Below are positions 6,236-47,000 of a DNA stretch of 64,000 nt, piece after piece. The stretch covers positions 54,870,001-54,934,000 of the forward strand of contig NC_091995.1 in NCBI RefSeq assembly GCF_044704955.1, written 5' to 3'. The position numbers were made by a program, and so were the translations under genes. Position 1 is the first letter of the stretch, and each line of letters starts with the position of its first letter. Source of the DNA: Pristiophorus japonicus. Taxonomy: Eukaryota. A model generated the notes under the pieces. That model did no database searches. It was given only the letters and a program-made list of their open reading frames with translations, and was not told the origin of the DNA.

Positions 6236-6263
6236 AGTGTCCACAAAAAAATTTCCACACACA
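6236..6263 (+). repeat. 28-bp A-tract cassette, forward form (representative copy)
   Basis: AGTGTCCACAAAAAAATTTCCACACACA between ctgtccccacacac and atgtcccc. Confidence 0.95.
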
Positions 6264-9200
6264 ATGTCCCCACACACTGTCCCCACACACTGTCCCCACA
6301 CGCACTGTCCCCACACACTTTCCACACACACTGTTCCCACACACACTGTCCCCACACACACTGTCCACACACACTGTCCACACACACTTTCCACACACAC
6401 TGTCCACACACAATGTCCCCACACACTGTCCCCACACACTGTCCCCACACACTGTCCACACACACACTGTCCCCACACACACTGTCCCCACACACACTGT
6501 CCACAGGCACTGTCCCCACGCACTGTCCACACACACTGTCCACACACACACTGTCCCCCCCACACACTGTCCCCCCCACACACTGACCCCCCCACACACT
6601 GTCCCCACACACTCTCTTCTCACACTGTCCACACACACTGTCCCCACACACTGTCCCCACACACACACTGTCCCCACACACACTGTCCCCACACACTCTC
6701 TTCTCACACTGTCCACACACACTGTCCCCACACACTGTCCCCACACACACACTGTCCCCACACACACTGTCCCCACACACACACTGTCCACACACACGAT
6801 TCACACACACTGTCCACACACACTGTCTCCACACACTGTCCCCACACACACACTGTCTCCACACACACTATTCACACACACTGTCCACACACACTGTCTC
6901 CACACACTGTCCCCACACACACTGTCTCCACACACTGTCCCCACACACTGTCCCCACACACTGTCCCCACACACTGTCCACACACACTGTCCCCACGCAC
7001 TGTCCACACACACTGTCCACACGCACTGTCCACACGGACTGTCCCCACACACTGTCCACACGCACTGTCCCCACGCATTGTCCACACACACTGTCCACAC
7101 GCACTGTCCACACACACTGTCCCCACGCACTGTCCACACACACTTTCCGCACACACACTGTCCACACACACTGTCCCCACACACTGTCCACACACACTGT
7201 CCACACGCACTGTCCACACGGACTGTCCCCACACACTGTCCACACGCACTGTCCCCACGCACTGTCCACACGCACTGTCCCCACACACTCTCCCCACACA
7301 CTGTCCCCACACACTCACAACACACACTGTCCCCACACACTGTCCACACACACTGTCCCCACACACTGTCCACACACACACTGTCCCCACACACTGTCCA
7401 CACACACTGTCTCCACACACTGTCCCCACACACACTGTCTCCACACACTGTCCCCACACACTGTCCCCACACACTGTCCCCACACACTGTCCACACACAC
7501 TGTCCCCACGCACTGTCCACACACACTGTCCACACGCACTGTCCACACGGACTGTCCCCACACACTGTCCACACGCACTGTCCCCACGCACTGTCCACAC
7601 ACACTGTCCACACGCACTGTCCACACACACTGTCCCCACGCACTGTCCACACACACTTTCCGCACACACACTGTCCACACACACTGTCCCCACACACTGT
7701 CCACACACACTGTCCACACGCACTGTCCACACGGACTGTCCCCACACACTGTCCACACGCACTGTCCCCACGCACTGTCCACACGCACTGTCCCCACACA
7801 CTCTCCCCACACACTGTCCCCACACACTCACAACACACACTGTCCCCACACACTGTCCACACACACTGTCCCCACACACTGTCCACACACACACTGTCCC
7901 CACACACTGTCCACACACACTGTCCCCACACACTGTCCACACACACACTGTCCCCACACACTGTCCACACACACTGACCACACACACTGTCCCCACACAC
8001 TGTCCACACACACTGTCCCCACACACTGACCCCACACACTGTCCCCTCAGACTGTCCCCACACACTGTCCACACACACTGACCACACACACTGTCTCCAC
8101 ACACTGTCCACACGCACTGTCCCCACACACTGTCCACACATACTGTCCCCACACACTGTCCCCACACACTGTCCACACACATTGACCACACACACTGTCC
8201 CCACACACTGTCCCCACACACTGTCCACACGCACTGTCCCCACGCACTGTCCCCACACACACTGTCCCCACACACACTGTCCACACACACTGTCCCCACA
8301 CACTGTCCACACACACTGTCCACACACACTGTACACACACACTGTCCCCACACTGTCCCCAGACACACTGTCCACACACACTGTCCACAGACACTGTCCC
8401 CACACACACTGTCCACACACACTATCCACATGCACTGTCCCCACACACTGTCCACACACACTGTCCACACACACTGTCCCCACACTGTCCCCAGACACAC
8501 TGCCCACACACACTGTCCACAGACACTGTCCCCACACTGTCCACACACACTGTCCCCACACTGTCCCCAGACACACTGTCCACACACACTGTCCACAAAC
8601 ACTGTCCCCACACTGTCCACACACACTGTCCCCACACTGTCCACACACACTGTCCCCACACTGTCCCCAGACACACTGTCCACACACACTGTCCCCACAC
8701 ACTGTCCACACACACTGTCCACACACACTGTCCCCACACTGTCCCCAGACACACTGTCCACACACACTGTCCACAGACACTGTCCCCACACACACTGTCC
8801 ACACACACTATCCACATGCACTGTCCCCACGCACTGTCCCCACACACTGTCCGCACACACACTGTCCCCACACACTATCCCCTCACACTGTCCACACACA
8901 CTGTCCCCACACACTGTCCTCACACACTGTCCACACACACTGTCCCCACACACTGTCTCCACACACTGTCCCCACACACACTGTCCCCACACACTGTCCA
9001 CACACACACTGTCCCCACACACTGTCCACACACACTGTCCCCACACACACTGTCCACACACACACTGTCCACACACACTGTCCCCACACACACTGTCCCC
9101 ACACACACTGTCCACACACACTGTCCCCACACACACTGTCCCCACACACACACACTGTCCCCACACACACTGTCCCCACACACACTGCGCACACACACAC

Positions 9201-12200
9201 TGTCCACACACACACTGTCCCCACACACACTGTCCCCACACACACACACTGTCCCCACACACACTGTCCCCACACACACTGCGCACACACACACTGTCCA
9301 CACACACTGTCCCCACACACTGTCCACACACACACTGTCCCCACACACACTGTCCCCACACACTGTCTCCACACACTGTCCCCACACACACTGCGCACAC
9401 ACACACTGTCCACACACACACTGTCCCCACACACTGTCCACACACACACTGTCCCCACACACACTGTCCCCACACACTGTCTCCACACACTGTCCCCACA
9501 CACTGTCGCCACACACACTGTCCCCACACACTCTCTTCTCACACTGTCCACACACACTGTCCCCACACACTGTCCCCACACACTGTCCCCACACGCACTG
9601 TCCCCACACACTTTCCACACACACTGTCCCCACACACACTGTCCACACACACTGTCCACACACACACTGTCCCCACACACACTGTCCCCACACACACTGT
9701 CCCCACACACTGTCCACACACACTGTCCACACACACTGTCCACACACACTTTCCGCACACACACTGTCCACACACACTGTCCCCACACACTGTCCACACA
9801 CACACTGTCCCCACACACTGTCCACACACACTGACCACACACACTGTCCCCACACACTGTCCACACACACTGTCCCCACACACTGACCCCACACACTGTC
9901 CCCTCACACTGTCCCCACACACTGTCCACACACACTGACCACACACACTGTCTCCACACACTGTCCACACGCACTGTCCCCACACACTGTCCACACATAC
10001 TGTTCCCACACACTGTCCCCACACACTGTCCACACACACTGACCACACACACTGTCCCCACACACTGTCCACACGCACTGTCCGACGCACTGTCCCCACA
10101 CACACTGTCCCCACACACACTGTCCACACACACTGTCCCCACACACTGTCCACACACACTGTCCACACACACTGTCCCCACACTGTCCCCAGACACACTG
10201 TCCACACACACTGTCCACAGACACTGTCCCCACACACACTGTCCACACACACTATCCACATGCACTGTCCCCACACACTGTCCACACACACTGTCCACAC
10301 ACACTGTCCACACACACTGTCCCCACACTGTCCCCAGACACACTGTCCACACACACTGTCCACACACACTGTCCCCACACTGTCCACACACACTGTCCCC
10401 ACACTGTCCCCAGACACACTGTCCACACACACTGTCCACACACACTGTCCCCACACTGTCCCCAGACACACTGTCCACACACACTGTCCACAGACACTGT
10501 CCCCACACACACTGTCCACACACACTATCCACATGCACTGTCCCCACACACTGTCCACACACACTGTCCACACACACTGTCCACACACACTGTCCCCACA
10601 CTGTCCCCAGACACACTGTCCACACACACTGTCCCCACACACTGTCCACACACACTGTCCACACACACTGTCCCCACACACACTGTCCACACACACTGTC
10701 CACAGACACTGTCCCCACACACACTGTCCACACACACTATCCACATGCACTGTCCCCACGCACTGTCCCCACACACTGTCCGCACACACACTGTCCCCAC
10801 ACACTATCCCCTCACACTGTCCACACACACTGTCCCCACACACTGTCCCCACACACTGTCCCCACACACTGTCCACACACACTGTCCCCACACACTGTCT
10901 CCACACACTGTCCCCACACACACTGTCCCCACACACTGTCCACACGCACTGTCCCCTCACACTGTCCACACATACTGTCCCCACACACTGTCCCCACACA
11001 CTGTCCACACACACTGTCCCCACACTGTCCACACACACTGTCCCCACACTGTCCCCAGACACACTGTCCACACACACTGTCCACAGACACTGTCCCCACA
11101 CTGTCCACACACACTGTCCCCACACTGTCCACACACACTGTCCCCACACTGTCCCCAGACACACTGTCCACACACACTGTCCCCACACACTGTCCACACA
11201 CACTGTCCACACACACTGTCCCCACACTGTCCCCAGACACACTGTCCACACACACTGTCCACAGACACTGTCCCCACACACACTGTCCACACACACTATC
11301 CACATGCACTGTCCCCACGCACTGTCCCCACACACTGTCCGCACACACACTGTCCCCACACACTATCCCCTCACACTGTCCACACACACTGTCCCCACAC
11401 ACTGTCCCCACACACTGTCCCCACACACTGTCCACACACACTGTCCCCACACACTGTCTCCACACACTGTCCCCACACACACTGTCCCCACACACTGTCC
11501 ACACACACACTGTCCCCACACACTGTCCACACACACTGTCCCCACACACACTGTCCACACACACACTGTCCACACACACTGTCCCCACACACACTGTCCC
11601 CACACACACTGTCCCCACACACACACACCGTCCCCACACACACTGTCCCCACACACTGTCCACACACACACTGTCCCCACACACACTGTCCCCACACACT
11701 GTCTCCACACACTGTCCCCACACACACTGCGCACACACACACTGTCCACACACACACTGTCCCCACACACTGTCCACACACACACTGTCCCCACACACAC
11801 TGTCCCCACACACTGTCTCCACACACTGTCCCCACACACTGTCGCCACACACACTGTCCCCACACACTCTCTTCTCACACTGTCCACACACACTGTCCCC
11901 ACACACTGTCCCCACACACTGTCCCCACACGCACTGTCCCCACACACTTTCCACACACACTGTCCCCACACACACTGTCCACACACACTGTCCACACACA
12001 CACTGTCCCCACACACTGTCCACACACACACTGTCCCCACACACTGTCCACACACACTGACCACACACACTGTCCCCACACACTGACCCCACACACTGTC
12101 CCCTCACACTGTCCCCACACACTGTCCACACACACTGACCACACACACTGTCTCCACACACTGTCCACACGCACTGTCCCCACACACTGTCCACACATAC

Positions 12201-14904
12201 TGTCCCCACACACTGTCCCCACACACTGTCCACACACACTGTCCACACACACTGTCCCCACACTGTCCCCAGACACACTGTCCACACACACTGTCCACAG
12301 ACACTGTCCCCACACACACTGTCCACACACACTATCCAGATGCACTGTCCCCACACACTGTCCACACACACTGTCCACACACACTGTCCACACACACTGT
12401 CCCCACACTGTCCCCAGACACACTGTCCACACACACTGTCCACACACACTGTCCCCACACTGTCCACACACACTGTCCCCACACTGTCCCCAGACACACT
12501 GTCCACACACACTGTCCACAGACACTGTCCCCACACTGTCCACACACACTGTCCCCACACTGTCCACACACACTGTCCCCACACTGTCCCCAGACACACT
12601 GTCCACACACACTGTCCCCACACACTGTCCACACACACTGTCCCCACACTGTCCCCAGACACACTGTCCACACACACTGTCCACAGACACTGTCCCCACA
12701 CACACTGTCCACACACACTATCCACATGCACTGTCCCCACGCACTGTCCCCACACACTGTCCGCACACACACTGTCCCCACACACTATCCCCTCACACTG
12801 TCCACACACACTGTCCCCACACACTGTCCCCACACACTGTCCCCACACACTGTCCACACACACTGTCCCCACACACTGCCTCCACACACTGTCCCCACAC
12901 ACACTGTCCCCACACACTGTCCACACACACACTGTCCCCACACACTGTCCACACACACTGTCCCCACACACACTGTCCACACACACACTGTCCACACACA
13001 CTGTCCCCACACACACTGTCCCCACACACACTGTCCACACACACTGTCCCCACACACACTGTCCCCACACACACACACCGTCCCCACACACACTGTCCCC
13101 ACACACACTGCGCACACACACACTGTCCACACACACACTGTCCCCACACACTGTCCACACACACACTGTCCCCACACACACTGTCCCCACACACTGTCTC
13201 CACACACTGTCCCCACACACACTGCGCACACACACACTGTCCACACACACACTGTCCCCACACACTGTCCACACACACACTGTCCCCACACACACTGTCC
13301 CCACACACACTGTCCACACACACTGTCCCCACACACACTGTCCCCACACACTGTCCACACACACTGTCCACACGCACTGTCCACACGCACTGTCCACACG
13401 CACTGTCCACACGCACTGTCCACCTGTCCACACACACTGTCCACACACACACTGTCCCCACACACACTGTCCCCACACACTGTCCACACACACTGTCCCC
13501 ACACACTGTCCCCCCCACACACTGTCCCCACACACTCTCTTCTCACACTGTCCACACACACTGTCCCCACACACTGTCCCCACACACACACTGTCCCCAC
13601 ACACACTGTCCCCACACACACACTGTCCACACACACTATTCACACACACTGTCCACACACACTGTCTCCACACACTGTCCCCACACACACTGTCTCCACA
13701 CACACTGTCTCCACACACTGTCCACACACACTGTCCACACGCACTGTCCACACGGACTGTCCCCACACACTGTCCACACGCACTGTCCCCACGCACTGTC
13801 CACACACACTGTCCCCACGCACTGTCCACACACACTGTCCACACGGACTGTCCCCACACACTGTCCACACGCACTGTCCCCACGCACTGTCCACACGCAC
13901 TGTCCACACGCACTGTCCACACGCACTGTCCACACGCACTGTCCACACACACTGTCCACACACACACTGTCCCCTCACACTGTCCACACACACACTATCC
14001 ACACATACACTGTCCCCACACACACTGTCCACACACACTCTCCCCTCACACTGTCCACACACACTGTCCACACACACACTGCGCACACACACACTGTCCA
14101 CACACACACTGTCCCCACACACTGTCCACACACACACTGTCCCCACACACACTGTCCCCACACACACTGTCCACACACACTGTCCACACACACACTGTCC
14201 CCACACACACTGTCCCCACACACTGTCCACACACACTGTCCACACGCACTGTCCACACGCACTGTCCACACGCACTGTCCACACGCACTGTCCACACGCA
14301 CTGTCCACACGCACTGTCCACCTGTCCACACACACTGTCCACACACACACTGTCCCCACACACACTGTCCCCACACACTGTCCACACACACTGTCCCCAC
14401 ACACTGTCCCCCCCACACACTGTCCCCACACACTCTCTTCTCACACTGTCCACACACACTGTCCCCACACACTGTCCCCACACACACACTGTCCCCACAC
14501 ACACTGTCCCCACACACACACTGTCCACACACACTATTCACACACACTGTCCACACACACTGTCTCCACACACTGTCCCCACACACACTGTCTCCACACA
14601 CACTGTCTCCACACACTGTCCACACACACTGTCCACACGCACTGTCCACACGGACTGTCCCCACACACTGTCCACACGCACTGTCCCCACGCACTGTCCA
14701 CACACACTGTCCCCACGCACTGTCCACACACACTGTCCCCACACACTGTCCACACGCACTGTCCCCACGCACTGTCCACACGCACTGTCCACACGCACTG
14801 TCCACACGCACTGTCCACACGCACTGTCCACACACACTGTCCACACGCACTGTCCACACACACTGTCCCCACACACACTGTCCACACACACTGTCCCCAC
14901 ACAC

Positions 14905-14932
14905 TGTGTGTGGAAATTTTTTTGTGGACACT
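14905..14932 (-). repeat. 28-bp A-tract cassette, inverted form (representative copy)
   Basis: TGTGTGTGGAAATTTTTTTGTGGACACT, the exact reverse complement of 6236-6263, between the same flanks. Confidence 0.95.
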
Positions 14933-17900
14933 ATGTCCCCACACACTGTCCCCACACACTGTCCCCACACACACTGTCCACACACACTGTCCACACACAC
15001 TGTCCACACACACTGTCCACACACACACTGTCCACACACACACTGTCCCCACACACACTGTCCACACACACACTGTCCCCACGCACTGTCCCCACACACT
15101 GTCCACACGGACTGTCCCCACACACTGTCCACACGCACTGTCCACACGCACTGTCCACACGCACTGTCCACACGCACTGTCCACACACACTGTCCACACA
15201 CACACGGTCCACACACACTGTCCCCTCACACTGTCCACACACACTGTCCCCACGCACTGTCCACACACACTGTCCCCACACACTGTCCACACGCACTGTC
15301 CCCACGCACTGTCCACACGCACTGTCCACACGCACTGTCCACACGCACTGTCCACACGCACTGTCCACACACACTGTCCACACACACACTGTCCCCTCAC
15401 ACTGTCCACACACACACTATCCACACATACACTGTCCCCACACACACTGTCCACACACACACACGGTCCACACACACTGTCCACACACACTGTCCACACA
15501 CACTCTCCCCTCACACTGTCCACACGCACTGTCCACACACACTGTCCCCACACACACTGTCCACACACACTGTCCCCACACACTGTGTGTGGAAATTTTT
15601 TTGTGGACACTATGTCCCCACACACTGTCCCCACACACTGTCCCCACACACACTGTCCACACACACTGTCCACACACACTGTCCACACACACACTGTCCA
15701 CACACACACTGTCCCCACACACACTGTCCACACACACACTGTCCCCACGCACTGTCCCCACACACTGTCCACACGGACTGTCCCCACACACTGTCCACAC
15801 GCACTGTCCACACGCACTGTCCACACGCACTGTCCACACACACTGTCCACACACACACGGTCCACACACACTGTCCCCTCACACTGTCCACACACACACT
15901 GTCCACACACACTGTCCACACACACTGTCCCCACACACACTGTCCCCACACACACTGTCCCCTCACACTGTCCCCTCACACTGTCCCCACACTGTCCACA
16001 CACACTGTCCCCACACTATCCCCAGACACACTGTCTACACACACTGTCCCCACACACTGTCCACACACACTGTCCACACACACTGTCCCCACACTGTCCC
16101 CAGACACACTGTCCACACACACTGTCCACAGACACTGTCCCCACACACACTGTCCACACACACTATCCACACGCACTGTCCCCACGCACTGTCCCCACAC
16201 ACTGTCCGCACACACACTGTCCCCACACACTATCCCCTCACACTGTCCACACACACTGTCCCCACACACTGTCCCCACACACTGTCCCCACACACTGTCC
16301 ACACACACTGTCCCCACACACTGTCTCCACACACTGTCCCCACACACTGTCCACACACACACTGTCCCCACACACACTGTCCACACACACACTGTCCACA
16401 CACACACTGTCCCCACACACACTGTCCCCACACACTGTCCACACACACTGTCCCCACACACTGTCCCCCCCACACACTGTCCCCACACACTCTCTTCTCA
16501 CACTGTCCACACACACTGTCCCCACACACTGTCCCCACACACACACTGTCCCCACACACACTGTCCCCACACACACACTGTCCACACACACTATTCACAC
16601 ACACTGTCCACACACACTGTCTCCACACACTGTCCCCACACACACTGTCTCCACACACACTGTCTCCACACACTGTCCACACACACTGTCCACACGCACT
16701 GTCCACACGGACTGTCCCCACACACTGTCCACACGCACTGTCCCCACGCACTGTCCACACACACTGTCCCCACGCACTGTCCACACACACTGTCCCCACA
16801 CACTGTCCACACGCACTGTCCCCACGCACTGTCCACACGCACTGTCCACACGCACTGTCCACACGCACTGTCCACACACACTGTCCACACGCACTGTCCA
16901 CACACACTGTCCCCACACACACTGTCCACACACACTGTCCACACACACACTGTCCCCACACACACTGTCCACACACACACTGTCCCCACGCACTGTCCCC
17001 ACACACTGTCCACACGGACTGTCCCCACACACTGTCCACACGCACTGTCCACACGCACTGTCCACACGCACTGTCCACACACACTGTCCACACACACACG
17101 GTCCACACACACTGTCCCCTCACACTGTCCACACACACACTGTCCACACACACTGTCCACACACACTGTCCACACACACTGTCCCCACACACACTGTCCC
17201 CACACACACTGTCCCCTCACACTGTCCCCTCACACTGTCCCCACACTGTCCACACACACTGTCCCCACACTATCCCCAGACACACTGTCCACACACACTG
17301 TCCCCACACACTGTCCACACACACTGTCCACACACACTGTCCCCACACTGTCCCCAGACACACTGTCCACACACACTGTCCACAGACACTGTCCCCACAC
17401 ACACTGTCCACACACACTATCCACACGCACTGTCCCCACGCACTGTCCCCACACACTGTCCGCACACACACTGTCCCCACACACTATCCCCTCACACTGT
17501 CCACACACACTGTCCCCACACACTGTCCCCACACACTGTCCCCACACACTGTCCACACACACTGTCCCCACACACTGTCTCCACACACTGTCCCCACACA
17601 CTGTCCACACACACACTGTCCCCACACACACTGTCCACACACACACTGTCCACACACACACTGTCCCCACACACACTGTCCCCACACACTGTCCACACAC
17701 ACTGTCCCCACACACTGTCCCCCCCACACACTGTCCCCACACACTCTCTTCTCACACTGTCCACACACACTGTCCCCACACACTGTCCCCACACACACAC
17801 TGTCCCCACACACACTGTCCCCACACACACACTGTCCACACACACTATTCACACACACTGTCCACACACACTGTCTCCACACACTGTCCCCACACACACT

Positions 17901-20900
17901 GTCTCCACACACACTGTCTCCACACACTGTCCACACACACTGTCCACACGCACTGTCCACACGGACTGTCCCCACACACTGTCCACACGCACTGTCCCCA
18001 TGCACTGTCCACACACACTGTCCCCACGCACTGTCCACACACACTGTCCCCACACACTGTCCACACGCACTGTCCCCACGCACTGTCCACACGCACTGTC
18101 CACACGCACTGTCCACACGCACTGTCCACACACACTGTCCACACGCACTGTCCACACACACTGTCCCCACACACACTGTCCACACACACTGTCCCCACAC
18201 ACTGTGTGTGGAAATTTTTTTGTGGACACTATGTCCCCACACACTGTCCCCACACACTGTCCCCACACACACTGTCCACACACACTGTCCACACACACTG
18301 TCCACACACACACTGTCCACACACACACTGTCCCCACACACACTGTCCACACACACACTGTCCCCACGCACTGTCCCCACACACTGTCCACACGGACTGT
18401 CCCCACACACTGTCCACACGCACTGTCCACACGCACTGTCCACACGCACTGTCCACACGCACTGTCCACACACACTGTCCACACACACACGGTCCACACA
18501 CACTGTCCCCTCACACTGTCCACACACACTGTCCCCACGCACTGTCCACACACACTGTCCCCACACACTGTCCACACGCACTGTCCCCACGCACTGTCCA
18601 CACGCACTGTCCACACGCACTGTCCACACGCACTGTCCACACGCACTGTCCACACACACTGTCCACACACACACTGTCCCCTCACACTGTCCACACACAC
18701 ACTATCCACACATACACTGTCCCCACACACACTGTCCACACACACACACGGTCCACACACACTGTCCACACACACTGTCCACACACACTCTCCCCTCACA
18801 CTGTCCACACGCACTGTCCACACACACTGTCCCCACACACACTGTCCACACACACTGTCCCCTCACACTGTCCACACACACACTGTCCACACACACTGTC
18901 CACACACACTGTCCCCACACACACTGTCCCCACACACTGTCCCCACACACTATCCACACACACTGTCCACACACACTCTCCCCTCACACTGTCCCCACAC
19001 TGTCCACACACACTGTCCCCACACTATCCCCAGACACACTGTCCACACACACTGTCCCCACACACTGTCCACACACACTGTCCACACACACTGTCCCCAC
19101 ACTGTCCCCAGACACACTGTCCACACACACTGTCCACAGACACTGTCCCCACACACACTGTCCACACACACTATCCACACGCACTGTCCCCACGCACTGT
19201 CCCCACACACTGTCCGCACACACACTGTCCCCACACACTATCCCCTCACACTGTCCACACACACTGTCCCCACACACTGTCCCCACACACTGTCCCCACA
19301 CACTGTCCACACACACTGTCCCCACACACTGTCTCCACACACTGTCCCCACACACTGTCCACACACACACTGTCCACACACACTGTCCACACACACTGTC
19401 CCCACACACACTGTCCCCACACACACTGTCCACACACACTGTCCCCACACACACTGTCCCCACACACACACACTGTCCCCACACACACTGTCCCCACACA
19501 CACTGCGCACACACACACTGTCCACACACACACTGTCCCCACACACTGTCCACACACACTGTCCACACACACTGTCCACACACACACTGTCCACACACAC
19601 ACTGTCCCCACACACACTGTCCACACACACACTGTCCCCACGCACTGTCCACACACACTGTCCCCACACACTGTCCACACGGACTGTCCCCACACACTGT
19701 CCACACGCACTGTCCCCACGCACTGTCCACACGCACTGTCCACACGCACTGTCCACACGCACTGTCCACACACACTGTCCACACACACACGGTCCACACA
19801 CACTGTCCCTTCACACTGTCCCCTCACACTGTCCACACACACACTGTCCACACACACACTGTCCACACACACACTGTCCACACACACTGTCCACACACAC
19901 TGTCCCCACACACACTGTCCCCACACACACTGTCCCCTCACACTGTCTCCTCACACTGTCCACACACACTGTCCCCACACACTGTCCACACACACTGTCC
20001 CCACGCACTGTCCACATGCACTGTCCCCACACACACTGTCCCCACACACACTGCCCCGTCAAACTGTCCACACACACACTGTCCACACGCACTGTCCACA
20101 CACACTGTCCCCACACACTGTCCACACACACACTGTCCACACACACTGTCCACACACACACTCTCCACACACACACTGTCCCCACACACACTGTCCACAC
20201 ACACACTCTCCACACACACACTCTCCACACACACACTCTCCACACACTGTCCACACAGACACTGTCCCCACACACACTGTCCACACACACTATCCACACG
20301 CACTGTCCCCACGCACTGTCCCCACGCACTGTCCCCACACACTGTCCACACGCACTATCCACACACACTGTCCACACACACTCTCCACACACACTGTCCA
20401 CACACACTGTCCCCACACACACTGTCCCCACACACTGTCCCCACACACACTGTCCCCACACACTGTCCCCACACACTGTCCCCACACACTGTCCACACAC
20501 ACTGTCCCCACACACTAACCACACACACTGACCACACGCACTGTCCCCACGCACTGTCCATACACACTGTCCACACACACTGTCCCCACACACACTGTCC
20601 CCACACACTGTCCCCACACACACTGTCCCCACACACTGTCCACACAGACTGTCCCCACACACACTGTCCACACACACTGTCCCCACACACACTGTCCCCA
20701 CACACACTGTCCACACACACTGTCCCCACACACTGTCCACACGCACTGTCCCCACACACTGTCCACACACACACTGTCCCCACACACACTGTCCACACAC
20801 ACTGTCCCCACACACTGTCCCCACACACTAACCACACACACTGACCACACGCACTGTCCCCACGCACTGTCCATACACACTGTCCACACACACTGTCCCC

Positions 20901-22357: not shown

Positions 22358-22389
22358 GTGTGTGGGGACAGTGTGTGGGGACAGTGTGT
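22358..22389 (-). repeat. Short inverted satellite patch (~2.5 monomers) between two A-tract cassettes
   Basis: gtgtgtggggacagtgtgtggggacagtgtgt on the + strand. Confidence 0.95.
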
Positions 22390-31300: not shown

Positions 31301-34300
31301 TGTCCACACACACACTGTCCCCACACACTGTCCCCACACACTGTCCCCACACACACTGTCCACACACACTGTCCCCCCACACTGTCCCCACACACACTGT
31401 CCCCACACACTGTCCCCACACACTGTCCACACACACTGTCCCCACACACTGTCCACACACACTGTCCCCACACACACTGTCCCCACACACACTGTCCACA
31501 CACACTGTCCCCACACACAGTGTCCACACACACTATCCACACGCACTGTCCCCACGCACTGTCCCCACACACTGTCCCCACACACTCTCTTCTCACACTG
31601 TCCACACACACTGTCCCCACACACTGTCCCCACACACTGTCCCCTCACACTGTCCCCACACACTGTCCCCTCACACTGTCCACACACACTGTCCCCACAC
31701 ACACACTGTCCCCACACACACTGTCCCAACACACACTGCGCACACACACACTGTCCACACACACACTGTCCACACACACTGTCCACACACACACTGTCCC
31801 CACACACACTGTCCACACACACTGTCCCCACACACTGTCCCCCCCACACACTGTCCCCACACACTCTCTTCTCACACTGTCCACACACACTGTCCCCACA
31901 CACTGTCCACACACACTGTCCCCACACACACTGTCCCCACACACACTGTCCCCTCACACTGTCCCCTCACACTGTCCACACACACTGTCCCCACACACTG
32001 TCCACACACACTGTCCCCACACACACTGTCCACACACACTGTCCCCACACACTGTCCCCACACACTGTGTGTGGAAATTTTTTTATGGACACTATGTCCC
32101 CACACACTGTCCCCACACACTGTCCCTACACACTATCCACACACACTGTCCCCACACACACTGTCCCCACACACTGTCCACACACACACACTGTCCACAC
32201 ACACTGTCCCCACACACACTGCGCACACACACACTGTCCACACACACACACTGTCCACACACACTGTCCACACACACACTGTCCCCACACACACTGTCTC
32301 CGCACAACTGTCCCCACACACTGACCACACACACTGTCCACATACACACTGTCCACACACACTGTCCCCACACACACTGTCCACACACACTGTCCACACA
32401 CACACTGTCCCCACACACTGTCCACACGCACTATCCACAGGCACTGTCCACACGCACTTTCCCCACACACTGTCCACACACACTGTCCCCACACACTGTC
32501 CACACACACACTGTCCCCACACACTGTCCCCACACACTGTCCCCACGCACTGTCCATACACACTGTCCACACACACTGTCCCCACAAACACTGTCCCCAC
32601 GCACTGTCCATACACACTGTCCACACACACTGTCCCCTCACACTGTCCACACACACTGTCCCCACACACTGTCCACACACACTGTCCCCACACACACTGT
32701 CCACACACACTGTCCCCACACACTGTCCCCACACACAGTGTCCATAAAAAAATTTCCACACACAGTGTCCCCACACACTGTCCCCACACACTGTCCCTAC
32801 ACACTATCCACACACACTGTCCCCACACACACTGTCCCCACACACTGTCCACACACACACACTGTCCACACACACTGTCCCCACACACACTGCGCACACA
32901 CACACTGTCCACACACACACACTGTCCACACACACACTGTCCCCACACACACTGTCTCCGCACAACTGTCCCCACACACTGACCACACACACTGTCCACA
33001 TACACACTGTCCACACACACTGTCCCCACACACAATGTCCACACACACTGTCCACACACACACTGTCCCCACACACTGTCCACACGCACTATCCACAGGC
33101 ACTGTCCACACGCACTTTCCCCACACACTGTCCACACACACTGTCCCCACACACTGTCCACACACACACTGTCCCCACACACTGTCCCCACACACTGTCC
33201 CCACGCACTGTCCATACACACTGTCCACACACACTGTCCCCACAAACACTGTCCCCACGCACTGTCCATACACACTGTCCACACACACTGTCCCCACACA
33301 CACTGTCCCCACACACTGTCCCCACACACACTGTCCCCACACACTGTCCCCACACACTGTCCCCACACACTCTCTTCTCACACTGTCCCCACACACTGTC
33401 CCCACACACACACTGTCCCCACACACACATTGTCCCCACACACACTGTCCCCACACACACACTGTCCACACACACTATTCACACACACTGTCCACACACA
33501 CTGTCTCCACACACTGTCCCCACACACACTGTCCACACGCACTGTCCACACGGACTGTCCCCACACACTGTCCACACGCACTGTCCCCACGCACTGTCCA
33601 CACACACTGTCCCCACGCACTGTCCCCACGCACTGTCCACACACACTGTCCACACGGACTGTCCACACGGACTGTCCCCACACACTGTCCACACACACTA
33701 TCCACACACACACGGTCCACACACACTGTCCCCTCACACTGTCCACACACACACTATCCACACACACACTGTCCCCACACACACTGTCCACACACACACA
33801 CGGTCCACACACACTGTCCACACACACTGTCCCCTCACACTGTCCCCTTACACTGTCCCCTCACACTGTCCCCACACACTGTCCCCACACACACTGTCCC
33901 CACACACACTGTCCCCACACACACTGTCCACACACACTGTCCACACACACACTGTCCCCACACACACTGTCCCCACACACTGTCCACACACACTGTCCAC
34001 ACGCACTGTCCACACGCACTGTCCACACGCACTGTCCCCACACACTGTCCCCCCCACACACTGTCCCCACACACTCTCTTCTCACACTGTCCACACACAC
34101 TGTCCCCACACACTGTCCCCACACACACACTGTCCCCACACACACTGTCCACACACACTGTCCCCACACACACTGTCCACACACACTGTCCACACACACT
34201 GTCCACACACACACTGTCCCCACGCACTGTCCACACACACTGTCCCCACACACTGTCCACACGCACTGTCCACACGGACTGTCCCCACACACTGTCCACA

Positions 34301-37300
34301 CGCACTGTCCCCACGCACTGTCCACACGCACTGTCCACACGCACTGTCCACACGCACTGTCCACACGCACTGTCCACACACACTGTCCACACACACACGG
34401 TCCACACACACTGTCCCCTCACACTGTCCACACACACACTATCCACACACACACTGTCCCCACACACACTGTCCACACACACACACGGTCCACACACACT
34501 GTCCACACACACTGTCCACACACACTCTCCCCTCACACTGTCCCCTCACACTGTCCACACACACACTGTCCACACACACTGTCCCCTCACACTGTCCCCT
34601 CACACTGTTCCCACACACTGTCCCCACACACTGTCCCCACACACTGTCCACACACACTGTCCCCACACACACTGTCCACACACACACTATCCCCTCACAC
34701 TGTCCACACACACACTGTCCCCACACACTGTCCACACACACTGTCCCCACGCACTGTCCCCACACACTGTCCACACACACACTGTCCGCACACACACTAT
34801 CCCCTCACACTGTCCACACACACACTGTCCCCACACACTGTCCACACACACTGTCCCCACACACACTGTCCCCACACACTGTCCACACACACTGTCCCCA
34901 CACACACTGTCCCCACACACTGTCCCCACACACACTGTCCCCACACACTGTCTCCACACACTGTCCACACACACTGTCCCCACACACACTGTCCCCACAC
35001 ACACACTGTCCCCACACACACTGTCCCCACACACACTGCGCACACACACACTGTCCCCACACACTCTCTTCTCACACTGTCCACACACACTGTCCCCACA
35101 CACTGTCCCCACACACTGTCCCCACACACTGTCCCCTCACACTGTCCCCACACACTGTCCCCTCACACTGTCCACACACACTGTCCCCACACACACACTG
35201 TCCCCACACACACTGTCCCAACACACACTGCGCACACACACACTGTCCACACACACACTGTCCCCTCACACTGTCCACACACACTGTCCCCACACACTGT
35301 CCCCACACACTGTCCCCACACACTATCCACACACACTGTCCCCACACACACTGTCCACACACACTGTCCCCACACACTGTCCACACACACTGTCCCCACA
35401 CACACACTGTCCCCACACACACTGTCCCAACACACACTGCGCACACACACACTGTCCACACACACACTGTCCCCTCACACTGTCCACACACACTGTCCCC
35501 ACACACTGTCCCCACACACTGTCCCCACACACTATCCACACACACTGTCCCCACACACACTGTCCACACACACACTGTCCACACACACTGTCCCCACACA
35601 CTGTGTGTGGAAATTTTTTTGTGGACACTATGTCCCCACGCACTGTCCACACGGACTGTCCCCACGCACTGTCCACACGCACTGTCCCCACGCACTGTCC
35701 ACACACACTGTCCCCACACACACTGTCCCCACACACTGTCCCCACACACACTGTCCCCACACACTGTCCCCACACACTGTCCCCACACACTGTCCACACA
35801 CACTGTCCCCACACACTGTCCACACACACACTGTCCCCACACACTGTCCACAGACACTGTCCCCACACACACTGTCCACACACACTATCCACACACACTG
35901 TCCACACACACTGTCCACACACACTGTCCACACACACACTGTCCCCTCACACTGTCCACACGGACTGTCCCCACACACTGTCCACACGCACTGTCCCCAC
36001 GCACTGTCCACACGCACTGTCCACACGCACTGTCCACACACACACGGTCCACACACACTGTCCCTTCACACTGTCCCCTCACACTGTCCACACACACACT
36101 GTCCACACACACACTGTCCACACACACTGTCCCCACACACACTGTCCCCACACACACTGTCCCCTCACACTGTCTCCTCACACTGTCCACACACACTGTC
36201 CCCACACACTGTCCACACACACTGTCCCCACACACAGTGTCCACAAAAAAATTTCCACACACAATGTCCCCACACACTGTCCCCACACAGTGTCCCCACA
36301 CGCACTGTCCCCACACACTTTCCACACACACTGTCCCCACACACACTGTTCCCACACACTGTCCCCACGCACTGTCCACACACACTGTCCACACACACTG
36401 TCCACACACACTGTCCCCACACACACTGTCCCCACACACACTGTCCCCACACACTGTCCCCACACACTGTCCCCACACACTGTCCACACACACACTGTCC
36501 CCACACACACTGTCCACACGCACTGTCCACACGCACTGTCCCCACGCACTGTCCACATGCACTGTCCCCACACACACTGTCCCCACACACACTGCCCCGT
36601 CAAACTGTCCACACACACACTGTCCACACGCACTGTCCACACACACTGTCCCCACACACTGTCCACACACACACTGTCCACACACACTGTCCACACACAC
36701 ACTCTCCACACACACACTGTCCCCACACACACTGTCCCCACACACTGTCCACACACACTGTCCCCACACACTGTCCCCACACACTGTCCACACACACTGT
36801 CCCCACACACTAACCACACACACTGACCACACGCACTGTCCCCACGCACTGTCCATACACACTGTCCACACACACTGTCCCCACACACACTGTCCCCACA
36901 CACTGTCCCCACACACACTGTCCCCACACACTGTCCACACAGACTGTCCCCACACACACTGTCCACATACACTGTCCCCACACACACTGTCCCCACACAC
37001 TGTCCACACAGACTGTCCCCACACACACTGTCCACACACACTGTCCCCACACACACTGTCCCCACACACACTGTCCCACACACTGTCCCACACACTGTCT
37101 CCCCACACTGTCCCCACACACACTGTCCCCACACACACACTGTCCCCACACACACTCTGTCCCCACACACACTGTCCCAACACACACTGCGCACACACAC
37201 ACTGTCCACACGCACTGTCCCCACACACTGTCCACACACACACTGTCCCCACACACACTGTCCACACACACTGTCCCCACACACTGTCCCCCACACACTG

Positions 37301-40300
37301 ACCACACGCACTGACCACACGCACTGTCCCCACGCACTGTCCACACACACTGTCCACACACACTGTCCCCACACACACTGTCCACACACACTGTCCCCAC
37401 ACACTGTCCACACGCACTGTCCCCACACACTGTCCACACACACTGTCCCCACACACACTGTCCCCACACACTGTCCCCACACACTAACCACACACACTGT
37501 CCACACACACTGTCCACACACACTGTCCACACACACTGTCCCCACACACACTGTCCACACACACTGTCCCCACACACTGTCCCCACACACACTGTCCCCA
37601 CACACTGTCCCCACACACTGTCCCCACACACTGTCCACACACACTGTCCCCACACACTGTCCACACACACTGTCTCCACACACACTGTCCCCACACACTG
37701 TCCCCACACACTGTCCACACACACTGTCCCCACACACTGTCCACACACACACTGTCCCCACACACTGTCCCCACACACTGTCCCCACACACACTGTCCAC
37801 ACACACTGTCCCCACACACTGTCCCCACACACACTGTCCACACACACTGTCCCCACACACAGTGTCCACACACACTATCCACACGCACTGTCCCCACGCA
37901 CTGTCCCCACACACTGTCCACACACACACTGTCCGCACACACACTATCCCCTCACACTGTCCACACACACTGTCCCCACACACACTGTCCCCACACACTG
38001 TCCCCACACACACTGTCCCCACACACTGTCCCCACACACTCTCTTCTCACACTGTCCACACACACTGTCCCCACACACTGTCCCCACACACTGTCCCCTC
38101 ACACTGTCCCCACACACTGTCCCCTCACACTGTCCACACACACTGTCCCCACACACACACTGTCCCCACACACACTGTCCCAACACACACTGCGCACACA
38201 CACACTGTCCACACACACACTGTCCACACACACTGTCCACACACACACTGTCCCCACACACACTGTCCACACACACTGTCCCCACACACTGTCCCCCCCA
38301 CACACTGTCCCCACACACTCTCTTCTCACACTGTCCACACACACTGTCCCCACACACTGTCCCCACACACACTGTCCCCTCACACTGTCCCCTCACACTG
38401 TCCACACACACTGTCCCCACACACTGTCCACACACACTGTCCCCACACACACTGTCCACACACACTGTCCCCACACACTGTCCCCACACACTGTGTGTGG
38501 AAATTTTTTTATGGACACTATGTCCCCACACACTGTCCCCACACACTGTCCACACACACACTATCCACACACACACTGTCCCCACACACACTGTCCACAC
38601 ACACACACGGTCCACACACACTGTCCACACACACTGTCCCCTCACACTGTCCCCTTACACTGTCCCCTCACACTGTCCCCACACACTGTCCCCACACACA
38701 CTGTCCCCACACACACTGTCCCCACACACACTGTCCACACACACTGTCCACACACACACTGTCCCCACACACACTGTCCCCACACACTGTCCCCACACAC
38801 TGTCCCCCACACACTGTCCACACACACACTGTCCACACACACTGTCCACACACACTGTCCCCACACACACTGTCCCCACACACACTGTCCCCTCACACTG
38901 TCTCCTCACACTGTCCACACACACTGTCCCCACACACTGTCCACACACACTGTCCCCACACACACTGTCCACACACACTGTCCCCACACAGTGTCCACAA
39001 AAAAATTTCCACACACAATGTCCCCACACACTGTCCACACGGACTGTCCCCACGCACTGTCCACACGCACTGTCCCCACGCACTGTCCACACACACTGTC
39101 CCCACACACACTGTCCCCACACACTGTCCCCACACACACTGTCCCCACACACTGTCCCCACACACTGTCCCCACACACTGTCCACACACACTGTCCCCAC
39201 ACACTGTCCACACACACACTGTCCCCACACACTGTCCACAGACACTGTCCCCACACACACTGTCCACACACACTGTCCACACGCACTGTCCACACGCACT
39301 GTCCACACACACTGTCCACACACACACGGTCCACACACACTGTCCCTTCACACTGTCCCCTCACACTGTCCACACACACACTGTCCACACACACACTGTC
39401 CACACACACTGTCCACACACACTGTCCCCACACACACTGTCCCCACACACACTGTCCCCTCACACTGTCTCCTCACACTGTCCACACACACTGTCCCCAC
39501 ACACTGTCCACACACACTGTCCCCACACACACTGTCCACACACACTGTCCCCACACAGTGTCCACAAAAAAATTTCCACACACAATGTCCCCACACACTG
39601 TCCCCACACGCACTGTCCCCACACACTTTCCACACACACTGTCCCCACACACACTGTTCCCACACACTGTCCCCACGCACTGTCCACACACACTGTCCAC
39701 ACACACTGTCCACACACACTGTCCCCACACACACTGTCCCCACACACACTGTCCCCACACACTGTCCCCACACACTGTCCCCACACACTGTCCCCACACA
39801 CACTGTCCCCACACACACTGTCCACACGCACTGTCCACACGCACTGTCCCCACGCACTGTCCACATGCACTGTCCCCACACACACTGTCCCCACACACAC
39901 TGCCCCGTCAAACTGTCCACACACACACTGTCCACACGCACTGTCCACACACACTGTCCCCACACACTGTCCACACACACACTGTCCCCACACACTAACC
40001 ACACACACTGACCACACGCACTGTCCCCACGCACTGTCCATACACACTGTCCACACACACTGTCCCCACACACACTGTCCCCACACACTGTCCCCACACA
40101 CACTGTCCCCACACACTGTCCACACAGACTGTCCCCACACACACTGTCCACACACACTGTCCCCACACACACTGTCCCCACACACACTGTCCCACACACT
40201 GTCCCACACACTGTCTCCCCACACTGTCCCCACACACACTGTCCCCACACACACACTGTCCCCACACACACTGTCCCAACACACACTGCGCACACACACA

Positions 40301-40544
40301 CTGTCCACACGCACTGTCCCCACACACTGTCCACACACACACTGTCCCCACACACACTGTCCACACACACTGTCCCCACACACTGTCCCCCACACACTGA
40401 CCACACGCACTGACCACACGCACTGTCCCCACGCACTGTCCACACACACTGTCCACACACACTGTCCCCACACACACTGTCCACACACACTGTCCCCACA
40501 CACTGTCCACACGCACTGTCCCCACACACTGTCCACACACACAC

Positions 40545-41062
40545 TGTGTGTGGGGACAGTGTGTGTGTGGACAGTGTGTGGGGACAGTGCGTGTGGACAG
40601 TGTGTGGGGACAGTGTGTGTGGACAGTGTGTGTGGGGACAGTGTGTGTGTGGACAGTGTGTGGGGACAGTGCGTGTGGACAGTGTGTGGGGACAGTGTGT
40701 GTGGACAGTGTGTGTGGGGACAGTGTGTGTGGACAGTGTGTGTGGACAGTGCGTGGGGACAGTGCGTGTGGTCAGTGCGTGTGGTCAGTGTGTGGGGGAC
40801 AGTGTGTGGGGACAGTGTGTGTGGACAGTGTGTGTGGGGACAGTGTGTGTGTGGACAGTGTGTGGGGACAGTGCGTGTGGACAGTGTGTGTGTGCGCAGT
40901 GTGTGTTGGGACAGTGTGTGTGTGGACAGTGTGTGTGGACAGTGTGTGTGGGGACAGTGTGTGTGGACAGTGTGTATGGACAGTGCGTGGGGACAGTGCG
41001 TGTGGTCAGTGTGTGTGGTTAGTGTGTGGGGACAGTGTGTGGGGACAGTGTGTGTGGGGACA
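40545..41062 (-). repeat. Inverted block of the satellite (~0.5 kb)
   Basis: The + strand reads (ggacagtgtgt)n here, with reverse-complemented markers ggtcag, gttggg, gtatgg and ggttag. Confidence 0.97.
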
Positions 41063-44000
41063 CTGTCCCCACACACTGTCCCCACACACTAACCACACAC
41101 ACTGACCACACGCACTGTCCCCACGCACTGTCCATACACACTGTCCACACACACTGTCCCCACACACACTGTCCACACACACTGTCCCCACACACTGTCC
41201 CCACACACTGTCCCCACACACACTGTCCACACACACTGTCCCCACACACACTGTCCCCACACACTGTCCACACACACTGTCCCCACACACAGTCCCCACA
41301 CACTGTCCACACACACACTGTCCCCACACACTGTCCCCACACACTGTCCACACACACTGTCCACACACACTGTCCACACACACTGTCCCCACACACACTG
41401 TCCACACACACTGTCCCCACACACTGTCCCCACACACACTGTCCACACACACTGTCCCCACACACTGTCCCCACACACACTGTCCCCACACACTGTCCCC
41501 ACACACTGTCCCCACACACTGTCCACACACACTGTCCCCACACACACTGTCCCCACACACACTGTCCACACACACTGTCCCCACACACTGTCCACACACA
41601 CTGTCCCCACACACTGTCCACACACACTGTCTCCACACACACTGTCCCCACACACTGTCCCCACACACTGTCCACACACACTGTCCCCACACACTGTCCA
41701 CACACACACTGTCCCCACACACTGTCCCCACACACTGTCCCCACACACTGTCCCCACACACACTGTCCACACACACTGTCCCCACACACAGTGTCCACAC
41801 ACACTATCCACACGCACTGTCCCCACGCACTGTCCCCACACACTGTCCACACACACACTGTCCGCACACACACTATCCCCTCACACTGTCCACACACACT
41901 GTCCCCACACACACTGTCCCCACACACTGTCCCCACACACACTGTCCCCACACACTGTCCCCACACACTCTCTTCTCACACTGTCCACACACACTGTCCC
42001 CACACACTGTCCCCACACACTGTCCCCTCACACTGTCCCCACACACTGTCCCCTCACACTGTCCACACACACTGTCCCCACACACACACTGTCCCCACAC
42101 ACACTGTCCCAACACACACTGCGCACACACACACTGTCCACACACACACTGTCCACACACACTGTCCACACACACACTGTCCCCACACACACTGTCCACA
42201 CACACTGTCCCCACACACTGTCCCCCCCACACACTGTCCCCACACACTCTCTTCTCACACTGTCCCCACACACTGTCCACACGCACTATCCACAGGCACT
42301 GTCCACACGCACTTTCCCCACACACTGTCCACACACACTGTCCCCACACACTGTCCACACACACACTGTCCCCACACACTGTCCCCACACACTGTCCCCA
42401 CGCACTGTCCATACACACTGTCCACACACACTGTCCCCACGCACTGTCCATACACACTGTCCACACACACTGTCCCCACACACACTGTCCCCACACACTG
42501 TCCCCACACACTGTCCCCACACACTCTCTTCTCACACTGTCCCCACACACTGTCCCCACACACACACTGTCCCCACACACACACTGTCCCCACACACACT
42601 GTCCCCACACACACACTGTCCACACACACTATTCACACACACTGTCTCCACACACTGTCCCCACACACACTGTCCACACGCACTGTCCACACGGACTGTC
42701 CCCACACACTGTCCACACGCACTGTCCCCACGCACTGTCCACACACACTGTCCCCACGCACTGTCCCCACGCACTGTCCACACACACTGTCCACACGGAC
42801 TGTCCACACGGACTGTCCCCACACACTGTCCACACACACTGTCCACACACACACGGTCCACACACACTGTCCCCTCACACTGTCCACACACACACTATCC
42901 ACACACACACTGTCCCCACACACACTGTCCACACACACACACGGTCCACACACACTGTCCACACACACTGTCCCCTCACACTGTCCCCTTACACTGTCCC
43001 CTCACACTGTCCCCACACACTGTCCCCACACACACTGTCCCCACACACACTGTCCCCACACACTGTCCACACACACACTGTCCACACACACACTGTCCCC
43101 ACACACACTGTCCCCACACACTGTCCACACACACTGTCCACACGCACTGTCCACACGCACTGTCCACACGCACTGTCCACACGCACTGTCCACCTGTCCA
43201 CACACACTGTCCACACACACACTGTCCCCACACACACTGTCCCCACACACTGTCCACACACACTGTCCCCACACACTGTCCCCCCCACACACTGTCCCCA
43301 CACACTCTCTTCTCACACTGTCCACACACACTGTCCCCACACACTATCCCCACACACACACTGTCCCCACACACACTGTCCACACACACTGTCCCCACAC
43401 ACACTGTCCACACACACTGTCCACACACACTGTCCACACACACACTGTCCCCACGCACTGTCCACACACACTGTCCCCACACACTGTCCACACGCACTGT
43501 CCACACGGACTGTCCCCACACACTGTCCACACGCACTGTCCCCACGCACTGTCCACACGCACTGTCCACACGCACTGTCCACACGCACTGTCCACACACA
43601 CTGTCCACACACACACGGTCCACACACACTGTCCCCTCACACTGTCCACACACACACTATCCACACACACACTGTCCCCACACACACTGTCCACACACAC
43701 ACACGGTCCACACACACTGTCCACACACACTGTCCACACACACTCTCCCCTCACACTGTCCCCTCACACTGTCCACACACACACTGTCCACACACACTGT
43801 CCCCTCACACTGTCCCCTCACACTGTTCCCACACACTGTCCCCACACACTGTCCCCACACACTGTCCACACACACTGTCCCCACACACACTGTCCACACA
43901 CACACTATCCCCTCACACTGTCCACACACACACTGTCCCCACACACTGTCCACACACACTGTCCCCACGCACTGTCCCCACACACACTGTCCACACACAC

Positions 44001-47000
44001 ACACGGTCCACACACACTGTCCACACACACTGTCCACACACACTCTCCCCTCACACTGTCCCCTCACACTGTCCACACACACACTGTCCACACACACTGT
44101 CCCCTCACACTGTCCCCTCACACTGTTCCCACACACTGTCCCCACACATTGTCCCCACACACTGTCCACACACACTGTCCCCACACACACTGTCCACACA
44201 CACACTATCCCCTCACACTGTCCACACACACACTGTCCCCACACACTGTCCACACACACTGTCCCCACGCACTGTCCCCACACACTGTCCACACACACAC
44301 TGTCCGCACACACACTATCCCCTCACACTGTCCACACACACACTGTCCCCACACACTGTCCACACACACTGTCCCCACACACACTGTCCCCACACACTGT
44401 CCACACACACTGTCCCCACACACACTGTCCCCACACACTGTCTCCACACACTGTCCACACACACTGCGCACACACACACTGTCCACACACACACTGTCCC
44501 CTCACACTGTCCACACACACTGTCCCCACACACTGTCCCCACACACTGTCCCCACACACTATCCACACACACTGTCCCCACACACACTGTCCACACACAC
44601 ACTGTCCACACACACTGTCCCCACACACTGTCCACACACACTGTCCCCACACACACACTGTCCCCACACACACTGTCCCAACACACACTGCGCACACACA
44701 CACTGTCCACACACACACTGTCCCCTCACACTGTCCACACACACTGTCCCCACACACTATCCACACACACTGTCCCCACACACACTGTCCACACACACAC
44801 TGTCCACACACACTGTCCCCACACACTGTGTGTGGAAATTTTTTTGTGGACACTATGTCCCCACGCACTGTCCACACGGACTGTCCCCACGCACTGTCCA
44901 CACGCACTGTCCCCACGCACTGTCCACACACACTGTCCCCACACACACTGTCCCCACACACTGTCCCCACACACACTGTCCCCACACACTGTCCCCACAC
45001 ACTGTCCCCACACACTGTCCACACACACACTGTCCCCACACACTGTCCACAGACACTGTCCCCACACACACTGTCCACACACACTATCCACACACACTGT
45101 CCACACACACTGTCCACACACACTGTCCACACACACACTGTCCCCTCACACTGTCCACACACACTGTCCCCACACACTGTCCCCACACACACTGTCCCCA
45201 CACACTGTCCACACACACACTGTCCCCTCACACTGTCCACACACACTGTCCCCACACACTGTCCCCACACACACTGTCCCCACACACTGTCCACACACAC
45301 ACTGTCCCCACACACTGTCCACACACACTGCGCACACACACACTGTCCACACACACACTGTCCCCACACACTGTCCACACACACACTGTCCCCACACACA
45401 CTGTCCACACACACTGTCCCCACACACTGTCCCCCCCACACACTGTCCCCACACACTCTCTTCTCACACTGTCCACACACACTGTCCCCACACACTGTCC
45501 CCTCACACTGTCCCCACACACTGTCCCCTCACACTGTCCCCTCACACTGTCCACACACACTGTCCACACACACACGGTCCACACACACACGGTCCACACA
45601 CACACTGTCCACACACACTGTCCACACACACACTGTCCCCACACACACTGTCTCCGCACAACTGTCCCCACACACTGACCACACACACTGACCCCACACA
45701 CACACTGTCAGCACACACACTGTCCCCACACACACTGCGCACACACACACTGTCCACACACACACTGTCCCCACACACACTGTCCACACACACTGTCCCC
45801 ACACACTGTCCACACACACACTGTCCCCACACACTGTCCCCACGCACTGTCCATACACACTGTCCACACACACTGTCCACACACACACAGTCCCCACACA
45901 CTGTCCCCACGCACTGTCCATACACACTGTCCACACACACTGTCCCCACAAACACTGTCCCCACGCAATGTCCATACACACTGTCCACACACACTGTCCC
46001 CACACACACTGTCCCCACACACTGTCCCCACACACTGTCCCCACACACACTGTCTCCGCACAACTGTCCCCACACACTGACCACACACACTGTCCACATA
46101 CACACTGTCCACACACACTGTCCCCACACACACTGTCCACACACACTGTCCACACACACTGTCCCCACACACACTGTCCCCACACACTGTCCCCACACAC
46201 TCTCTTCTCACACTGTCCACACACACTGTCCCCACACACTGTCCCCACACACACTGTCCCCACACACACTGTCCACACACACTGTCCCCACACACTGTCC
46301 ACACACACACAGTCCCCACACACTGTCCCCACGCACTGTCCATACACACTGTCCACACACACTGTCCCCACAAACACTGTCCCCACGCACTGTCCATACA
46401 CACTGTCCACACACACTGTCCCCACACACAATGTCCCCACACACTGTCCCCACACACTGTCCACACAAACTGTCCCCACACACTGTCCCCACACACACTG
46501 TCCACACACACTGTCCACACACACACTGTCCCCACACACACTGTCTCCGCACAACTGTCCCCACACACTGACCACACACACTGTCCACATACACACTGTC
46601 CACACACACTGTCCCCACACACACTGTCCACACACACTGTCCCCACACACACTGTCCCCACACACTGTCCCCACACACTGTCCCCACACACTGTCCACAC
46701 ACACTGTCCCCACACACACTGTCCCCACACACTGTCCCCACACACTGTCCCCACACACTGTCCACACACACTGTCCCCACACACTGTCCACACACACACT
46801 GTCCCCACACACTGTCCACACACACTGTCCCCACACACACTGTCCCCACACACACTGACCCCACACACTGTCCCCACACACTGTCTCCACACACTGTCCA
46901 CACACACTGTCCCCACACACTGTCCCCCCCACACACTGTCCCCACACACTCTCTTCTCACACTGTCCCCACACACTGTCCACACGCACTGTCCCCACACA

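Follow-up and report, generated by a model that had tools for sequence, protein, structure and literature searches.

The DNA analysed here, referred to as the window, is a 64,000-nucleotide stretch of the Pristiophorus japonicus genome (contig NC_091995.1, positions 54,870,001 to 54,934,000). From position 4283 onward, beginning ~3.8 kb 3' of the C1 exon of beta-2-microglobulin, it is occupied by a minisatellite in which a 28-nucleotide (nt) cassette occurs in two orientations. Exact and fuzzy searches of the window located 18 cassette copies, 17 of them exact and one (22385) with a single terminal difference; eight read forward and ten are inverted. Position 9 of the cassette is the only internal position that varies among them, and this single-nucleotide polymorphism (SNP) combines with orientation to give four classes, named by orientation and base. 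Forward-C and inverted-G copies are exact reverse complements over 28 nt. A preliminary description of this DNA had listed these same 18 copies (five forward-C, three forward-T, eight inverted-G and two inverted-A), and all of them were found. The array and its cassette copies are as follows.

4283..64000, plus strand: minisatellite of 11-17 bp (CA)n-CTGTCC(CC) monomers (Tandem Repeats Finder, monomer table and neighbouring stretches)
6236..6263, plus strand: forward-C copy
14905..14932, minus strand: inverted-G copy
15584..15611, minus strand: inverted-G copy
18203..18230, minus strand: inverted-G copy
22330..22357, plus strand: forward-T copy, first half of a fold-back, right junction A-G
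22385..22412, plus strand: second forward-T copy, cassette positions 6-28 restarting at 22390, standard forward right junction
25004..25031, minus strand: inverted-G copy
28606..28633, minus strand: inverted-G copy
29552..29579, minus strand: inverted-G copy
30067..30094, plus strand: forward-C copy
32066..32093, minus strand: inverted-A copy, tandem neighbour (671 bp) of 32737
32737..32765, plus strand: forward-T copy, G at +1
35602..35629, minus strand: inverted-G copy
36236..36263, plus strand: forward-C copy
38492..38519, minus strand: inverted-A copy
38990..39017, plus strand: forward-C copy
39557..39584, plus strand: forward-C copy
44827..44854, minus strand: inverted-G copy

The cassette is private to this locus, because an exact search of the 5.9-Gb genome with its 27-base core returned only the same 18 copies (8 forward and 10 reverse matches, all in the window); the reversed core, used as a control, gave 0 matches genome-wide. 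All copies are restricted to 6.2-44.9 kb of one array. Read forward, the cassette consists of three mutated array monomers (an AGTGTCC variant, an A-rich TTTCC variant and the start of an AATGTCC variant), and the copy search and monomer table identified a relative of it outside the cassette copies.

6373..6420, plus strand: TTTCC monomer followed by an AATGTCC monomer, non-cassette relative

Because the forward state reads as array monomers and has this relative, it is likely derived from the array and likely represents the ancestral orientation. Judged by its sequence, the cassette is a private micro-inversion made of array monomers and not a mobile cassette.

The inversion site is a symmetrical imperfect hairpin of 3 pairs, 2 mismatched positions, 4 pairs and an 18-base loop. 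Both breakpoints lie between the two mismatched positions, with 0 bases of terminal microhomology at each, and the microhomology-clean products expected from switching within the inner or the outer stem occur 0 times each in 144 kb. The standard junctions, ACAC before the left breakpoint and ATGTCCCC after the right one, are present in all 15 forward-C, inverted-G and inverted-A copies. The inverted repeat at the site pairs at 7 of 9 outer positions; 2,226 other combinations of position and span in the array do equally well, so this weak repeat alone cannot single out the breakpoints. The idea that the site is the strongest inverted repeat of the array was rejected, since 67 of 112,253 36-mers score 7/9 as well in a scan that masked the cassette surroundings, a 518-bp strand-reversed block and an insert resembling a long interspersed nuclear element (LINE). 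In folding calculations the inverted state reaches -10.6 kcal/mol, against -1.4 (top strand) and -4.8 (bottom strand) for the forward state, which folds no better than shuffled sequences (z +1.26 and -0.69). The palindromes at the inverted junctions, where the preliminary description had placed template switching, are thus in part products of the inversion.

The same description had argued that one inversion plus one point mutation would not account for four classes. We encoded the flanks as monomer strings, merging 22330 and 22385 into one row (17 rows), and built the flank tree that it had proposed. Flanks have a high background similarity (of 200, the median is 102 and the 99th percentile 143), and only close groupings count. 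One such grouping is formed by the copies with T or A at the SNP: 22330, 32066, 32737 and 38492 have 61-141 bp of exact left flank in common. Copies 38492 and 32066 are identical over 141 bp on the left and differ on the right, and the tandem units 32066 and 32737, 671 bp apart, agree exactly over 111 bp on the left and over 170 bp on the right past +1, with 392 matches and 2 substitutions over ~400 bp of right flank. A downstream marker sequence, previously noted behind copies of both orientations, has three occurrences in 144 kb (22443, 32124 and 32795), and these indeed follow two forward copies (22385 and 32737) and one inverted copy (32066). On these flank comparisons, the five T/A copies are one lineage holding both orientations. 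Since the T/A lineage and the C/G copies each contain both orientations, at least two orientation changes have occurred if the SNP arose once, and the earlier argument holds on that condition.

Flanks across orientations also bear on where the first change took place. Among copies with an intact left flank, exact left-flank identity between opposite orientations ranges from 5 to 111 bp, and forward-C copy 6236 has 51 bp on the left and 38 bp on the right in common with four inverted-G copies of the 14905 type. The context of 6236 and the 14905-type copies is likely, from this match, to be the setting of the founding inversion. Copy 38990 joins a left flank of the forward-C type to a right flank of the inverted-G type: its right 301 bp align to 35602 with 297 matches and no gaps, versus 269 matches and 9 gap runs to 39557. 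It is likely the product of a flank exchange whose exchange point would lie 11-19 bp from the cassette.

None of the three forward-T copies has both standard junctions. Copy 22330 is followed directly by an inverted copy of its left flank, the left junction of 22385 is missing and 32737 has G instead of A at +1. The four classes therefore stand, but the identical flanks between which they had been said to lie do not.

22358..22389, minus strand: 32-bp inverted copy of the T/A-lineage left flank (matches own left flank)

This insert pairs with 22298-22329 in a perfect 32-bp hairpin stem (-46.1 kcal/mol, z -9.9), and the composite at 22330-22412 retains the standard outer forward junctions. The insert matches the left flanks of 22330, 32066 and 38492 for 32 bp and those of inverted-G copies for 20 bp only. 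Together with the preceding cassette (22330-22389), it is the reverse complement of 32034-32093, a stretch made up of inverted-A copy 32066 and 32 bp of left flank, at 60 of 60 bases; against each of the eight inverted-G copies the agreement is 8 bases. Copy 32737 departs from forward-C at two bases, the SNP and +1, and both equal the reverse complement of inverted-A. A single template switch of type 3-1-2-4 rebuilds it exactly over 149 bp from 32066.

We consider it about an even chance that these copies record one founding micro-inversion, its spread by array turnover and a later strand switch templated on a copy of opposite orientation. Such a history would comprise (i) a single inversion at the 3 + 4 bp imperfect inverted repeat, through template switching or microhomology-mediated break repair, (ii) multiplication of the cassette by unequal exchange that shuffles flanks to within ~20 bp of it, as is seen in part at 38990, and (iii) in the T/A sub-lineage, a jump of the copied strand to the opposite strand of an oppositely oriented neighbour. 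Once both orientations were present, 28 bp of perfect inverted homology would be the best landing site in the array, and later switches would therefore reuse the old junctions rather than cut anew. Both the T and the +1 G of 32737 would come from one tract copied off inverted-A, and the fold-back at 22330-22412 from a longer overshoot. The cassette would have no function.

Three considerations favour the templated route: it needs only one junction pair made without homology, a single tract explains both the T and the G of 32737, and it accounts for the clustering of strand-reversed features at one of ~2,200 weak sites. A second, independent break at the very same bases is improbable, because terminal microhomology is 0 and there are ~2,200 equal sites, if these are equivalent (the comparison is of 18 copies with ~2,200 sites). 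Orientation has likely changed at least twice through ordinary copying slips and not through a built-in switch. As to the preliminary description, a strand-switching copying error remains the likely cause, and conversion between opposite-orientation copies, which it had offered as an option, is the best fit; clean repeated flipping at the same breakpoints was overstated, as the junction scars of the forward-T copies match the reverse complement of an inverted-A copy.

Several observations weigh against a switch templated on an inverted copy. A 52-bp left context stands before four forward-C and three T/A copies and before no inverted-G copy (15 occurrences, 7 of them just upstream of a cassette), and a SNP that arose on a forward copy, with a new inversion afterwards, would account for it at least equally well. 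Tree support for the link between forward-C and T/A copies is thin, at 144-150 against the background 99th percentile of 143; 32066 with inverted-G copy 25004 scores 142, near those values. The 32-bp insert matches the left flank of 22330 itself equally well, making a self fold-back from a forward-T ancestor possible on sequence grounds. Copy 22385 would require a further switch within a 19-bp window, and the forward-C copy in T/A flank context that the templated route requires is absent from this haplotype. Finally, every array 10-mer with at least 9 A/T sits in the cassette (array outside the LINE-like insert), a monopoly that could make the cassette a true hotspot, and a single haplotype cannot order the events.

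The leading alternative, tentative but with a real share of the probability, is such an intrinsic hotspot, in which an A7T3 run within the 3 + 4 bp imperfect hairpin re-inverts afresh at the same two bases without a partner. This was the main model of the preliminary description, and the change could run from forward-T to inverted-A or the reverse. The stem-bubble-stem geometry is the same in both orientations, with a T:G wobble beside each breakpoint on the G-rich strand, and the cassette is the only AT-rich spot of the array; the left context of the T/A copies is of the forward-C type, and the 22330-22412 composite has standard forward junctions on its outer sides. For bird introns, homoplastic micro-inversions that require 3-4 changes have been reported (PMC3123225). 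Against this, a junction without terminal microhomology would have to be remade at both ends, the two products of within-stem switching are missing from the 144 kb, the forward state shows no folding advantage over its shuffles, and scar-free forward-T copies number zero.

An extension of the templated route goes further and is, in our judgement, unlikely: a self-catalysing toggle, in which opposite-orientation copies template the flipping of their neighbours at fixed breakpoints without a recombinase. If true, minority flipped molecules would be visible in sperm or soma, and hairpin fold-backs would arise beside the shark major histocompatibility complex (MHC). More generally, if opposite copies template each other, a first micro-inversion would make further inversions and hairpins more frequent nearby, and satellite genealogies could not safely be read from orientation.

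A single inversion could suffice if an inverted cassette had reached the T-lineage context through flank exchanges and the same C>T (or G>A) change had occurred on two occasions. Tight flank exchange is visible at 38990 and the change is a transition, but we regard this as improbable: the 18 copies have one variable internal site, an identical second change would have a chance of ~1 in 84 if changes were uniform, the site is not CpG, the second change must land in the same flank lineage, and the +1 G and the fold-back are left unexplained.

Slightly more doubtful still is an origin of the T/A copies or of the fold-back in assembly or library artefacts. Independent sequencing data consisted of filtered contigs from six public runs (X1, X3, X5, X10, X11 and X12). 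No forward or T/A copy was present among them, and a perfect 32-bp hairpin within a low-complexity array, such as the fold-back forms, might be an artefact. However, the contigs were filtered and such absence is uninformative; the cassette contig of X3 is itself missing from X1, from the same sample, and so contig absence proves nothing. That X3 contig (85 nt, depth 26) spans an inverted-G copy with both junctions, and, judging by its 5 and 2 differences, it could come from copy 25004, 29552, 35602 or 44827 but from none of the remaining six inverted copies. In addition, the T/A allele occurs in five copies with consistent private flanks.

Recombinase-driven invertible switches such as fimS and the hin-type systems resemble the cassette in having a defined segment, two orientations and the same flanks; unlike them, the cassette lacks long matched crossover sites, is too short, carries junction scars and is confined to a single locus. 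Where a recombinase would act on matched inverted crossover sites and leave clean reciprocal products, we found 0 terminal homology and scarred products. RAG, for its part, cuts at the edge of a heptamer that has a well-known consensus, as does the accompanying nonamer. A programmed invertible element, driven by a recombinase or by RAG acting on the heptamer-like CACAGTG, is very improbable. In its favour, most copies have CACAGTG or CACTGTG across their left breakpoint, and the beta-2-microglobulin gene of elasmobranchs is linked to the MHC (PMC10751288). Against it, the surroundings of 6236 and 14905 contain no nonamer (up to 3 mismatches) spaced by 11-13 or 22-24 bp, the heptamer is broken internally rather than at its edge, it occurs 54 times in the array, segments below 33 bp have been argued to be too short to loop (PMC8755829), the element is present at one locus only, and no recombinase gene was seen in the window (array, beta-2-microglobulin region and LINE-like insert), where no search was aimed at recombinases.

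The closest published counterparts are the definite micro-inversions of 17-33 nt between human and chimpanzee, for which template switching or microhomology-mediated break repair is proposed (PMC8755829). The cassette agrees with them in its length of 28 nt, in being an exact reverse complement and in having a short imperfect inverted repeat (at least 3 nt; here 3 + 4 pairs) overlapping the inversion edge. Those cases are single-copy, come from a survey that excluded repeat-masked regions and represent one event each; the cassette, by contrast, has been multiplied in both orientations within a single tandem array, which also records a second reversal. Switching at a replication fork and the break repair of PMC8755829 are inseparable from sequence.

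The four-point template-switch model (PMC5453318, PMC7954356 and bioRxiv 10.1101/2021.11.26.470150) describes a single round of switching on one local template. In this literature, 45% of events are inversions in place (type 1-3-2-4), and type 3-1-2-4 makes up 23% of human-chimpanzee events (PMC5453318); pre-existing similarity at the switch points is stated not to be required, and the 2022 preprint (bioRxiv 10.1101/2021.11.26.470150) mentions variable number tandem repeats evolving by template switch. The founding event fits type 1-3-2-4, and the derivation of 32737 from 32066 is of type 3-1-2-4: taken as the derived allele, 32737 is rebuilt exactly by one nearby reverse-complement fragment, the mark by which a template switch is recognised. 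The composite at 22330-22412 instead takes three switches, or else a strand that returns upstream of where it left, an order that the model's authors did not observe; the order implied by a self fold-back is likewise absent from the human-chimpanzee survey (PMC5453318).

Recurrence as such has precedents in homoplastic micro-inversions of bird clathrin introns and in hairpin-loop inversions of plastids (PMC3123225), where, as here, the same segment changes orientation more than once. Those recurrences are spread over separate species and tens of millions of years, and in birds they lack stem-loops; here, recurrence is among paralogous repeat units on one chromosome. The cassette cleanly exemplifies a mutational process that is already known, and nothing about it points to a function. 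Template-switch surveys omit repeats and low-complexity DNA, and so an in-array case is rarely seen; we found no report of a micro-inversion multiplied in both orientations within one tandem array in the open-access literature, supplements aside. The paralogous units preserve the stages together: forward, inverted, re-inverted with a one-base scar, and fold-back duplication.

Strand reversal in this array is not limited to the cassette.

40545..41062, minus strand: strand-reversed block of 518 bp, both junctions at the ACA-C-TGT monomer palindrome

The block carries inverted copies of both its neighbours (285 bp exact to 40263-40547 and 115 bp to 41069-41183) and an internal duplicated monomer run. 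As it is unrelated to the cassette, the array produces strand-reversal errors apart from it. A genome-wide search for the monomer-to-monomer fold-back junction gave 0 matches with a single tight pattern that misses even the 40545 junction, and is therefore uninformative. A C>G change at the centre of ACA-C-TGT was considered as a mark of one-base flips and rejected, G (70) being in no excess over T (67) and A (60) beside 6348 C across the whole array.

The host minisatellite extends from 4283 to ~122,040 in window-extended coordinates, ~118 kb in total, of which ~58 kb lie beyond the window; within the window, Tandem Repeats Finder reports a period of 13 and 4394 copies. It is strongly strand-skewed (49% C, 9% G). 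Its strand-reversed pieces all lie within its first 41 kb, and no strand-reversed block was found past 45 kb. A minisatellite 37-mer has 299 matches genome-wide (295 forward, 4 reverse). All 4 reverse matches fall in a second array of the same monomer on another contig (~7 kb, 385 monomers, ~2.661-2.668 Mb), and among the 96 forward matches listed all fall in the main array; by these matches the minisatellite is nearly confined to this locus. The second array contains no cassette and no strand-reversed piece, and the 28-mer, which the preliminary description had suggested seeking in other arrays, occurs in none, all 18 genomic matches being those of the window. About 5 kb from the second array lies a different, GGACAG-rich repeat in opposite orientation.

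Upstream of the minisatellite, the window contains a gene landmark.

190..462, plus strand: beta-2-microglobulin exon, Ig C1-set (translation, Pfam, PDB and AG/GT ends)

The product of this exon matches the Pfam C1-set domain (E 1.6e-16), its best PDB matches are beta-2-microglobulin (E 1.2e-41), the top ones of which we take to be shark proteins, and the AG/GT ends are visible in the sequence. An effect of the cassette on beta-2-microglobulin, or any other function, is neither shown nor expected. A 1.8-kb insert that does not belong to the array interrupts it at 56999-58776; it is presumably the 3' part of a CR1-type LINE, as recognised by eye, and has a short 8-bp tandem tail (58745-58773). 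The intron after the beta-2-microglobulin exon contains two copies of a 94-bp unit (656-829).

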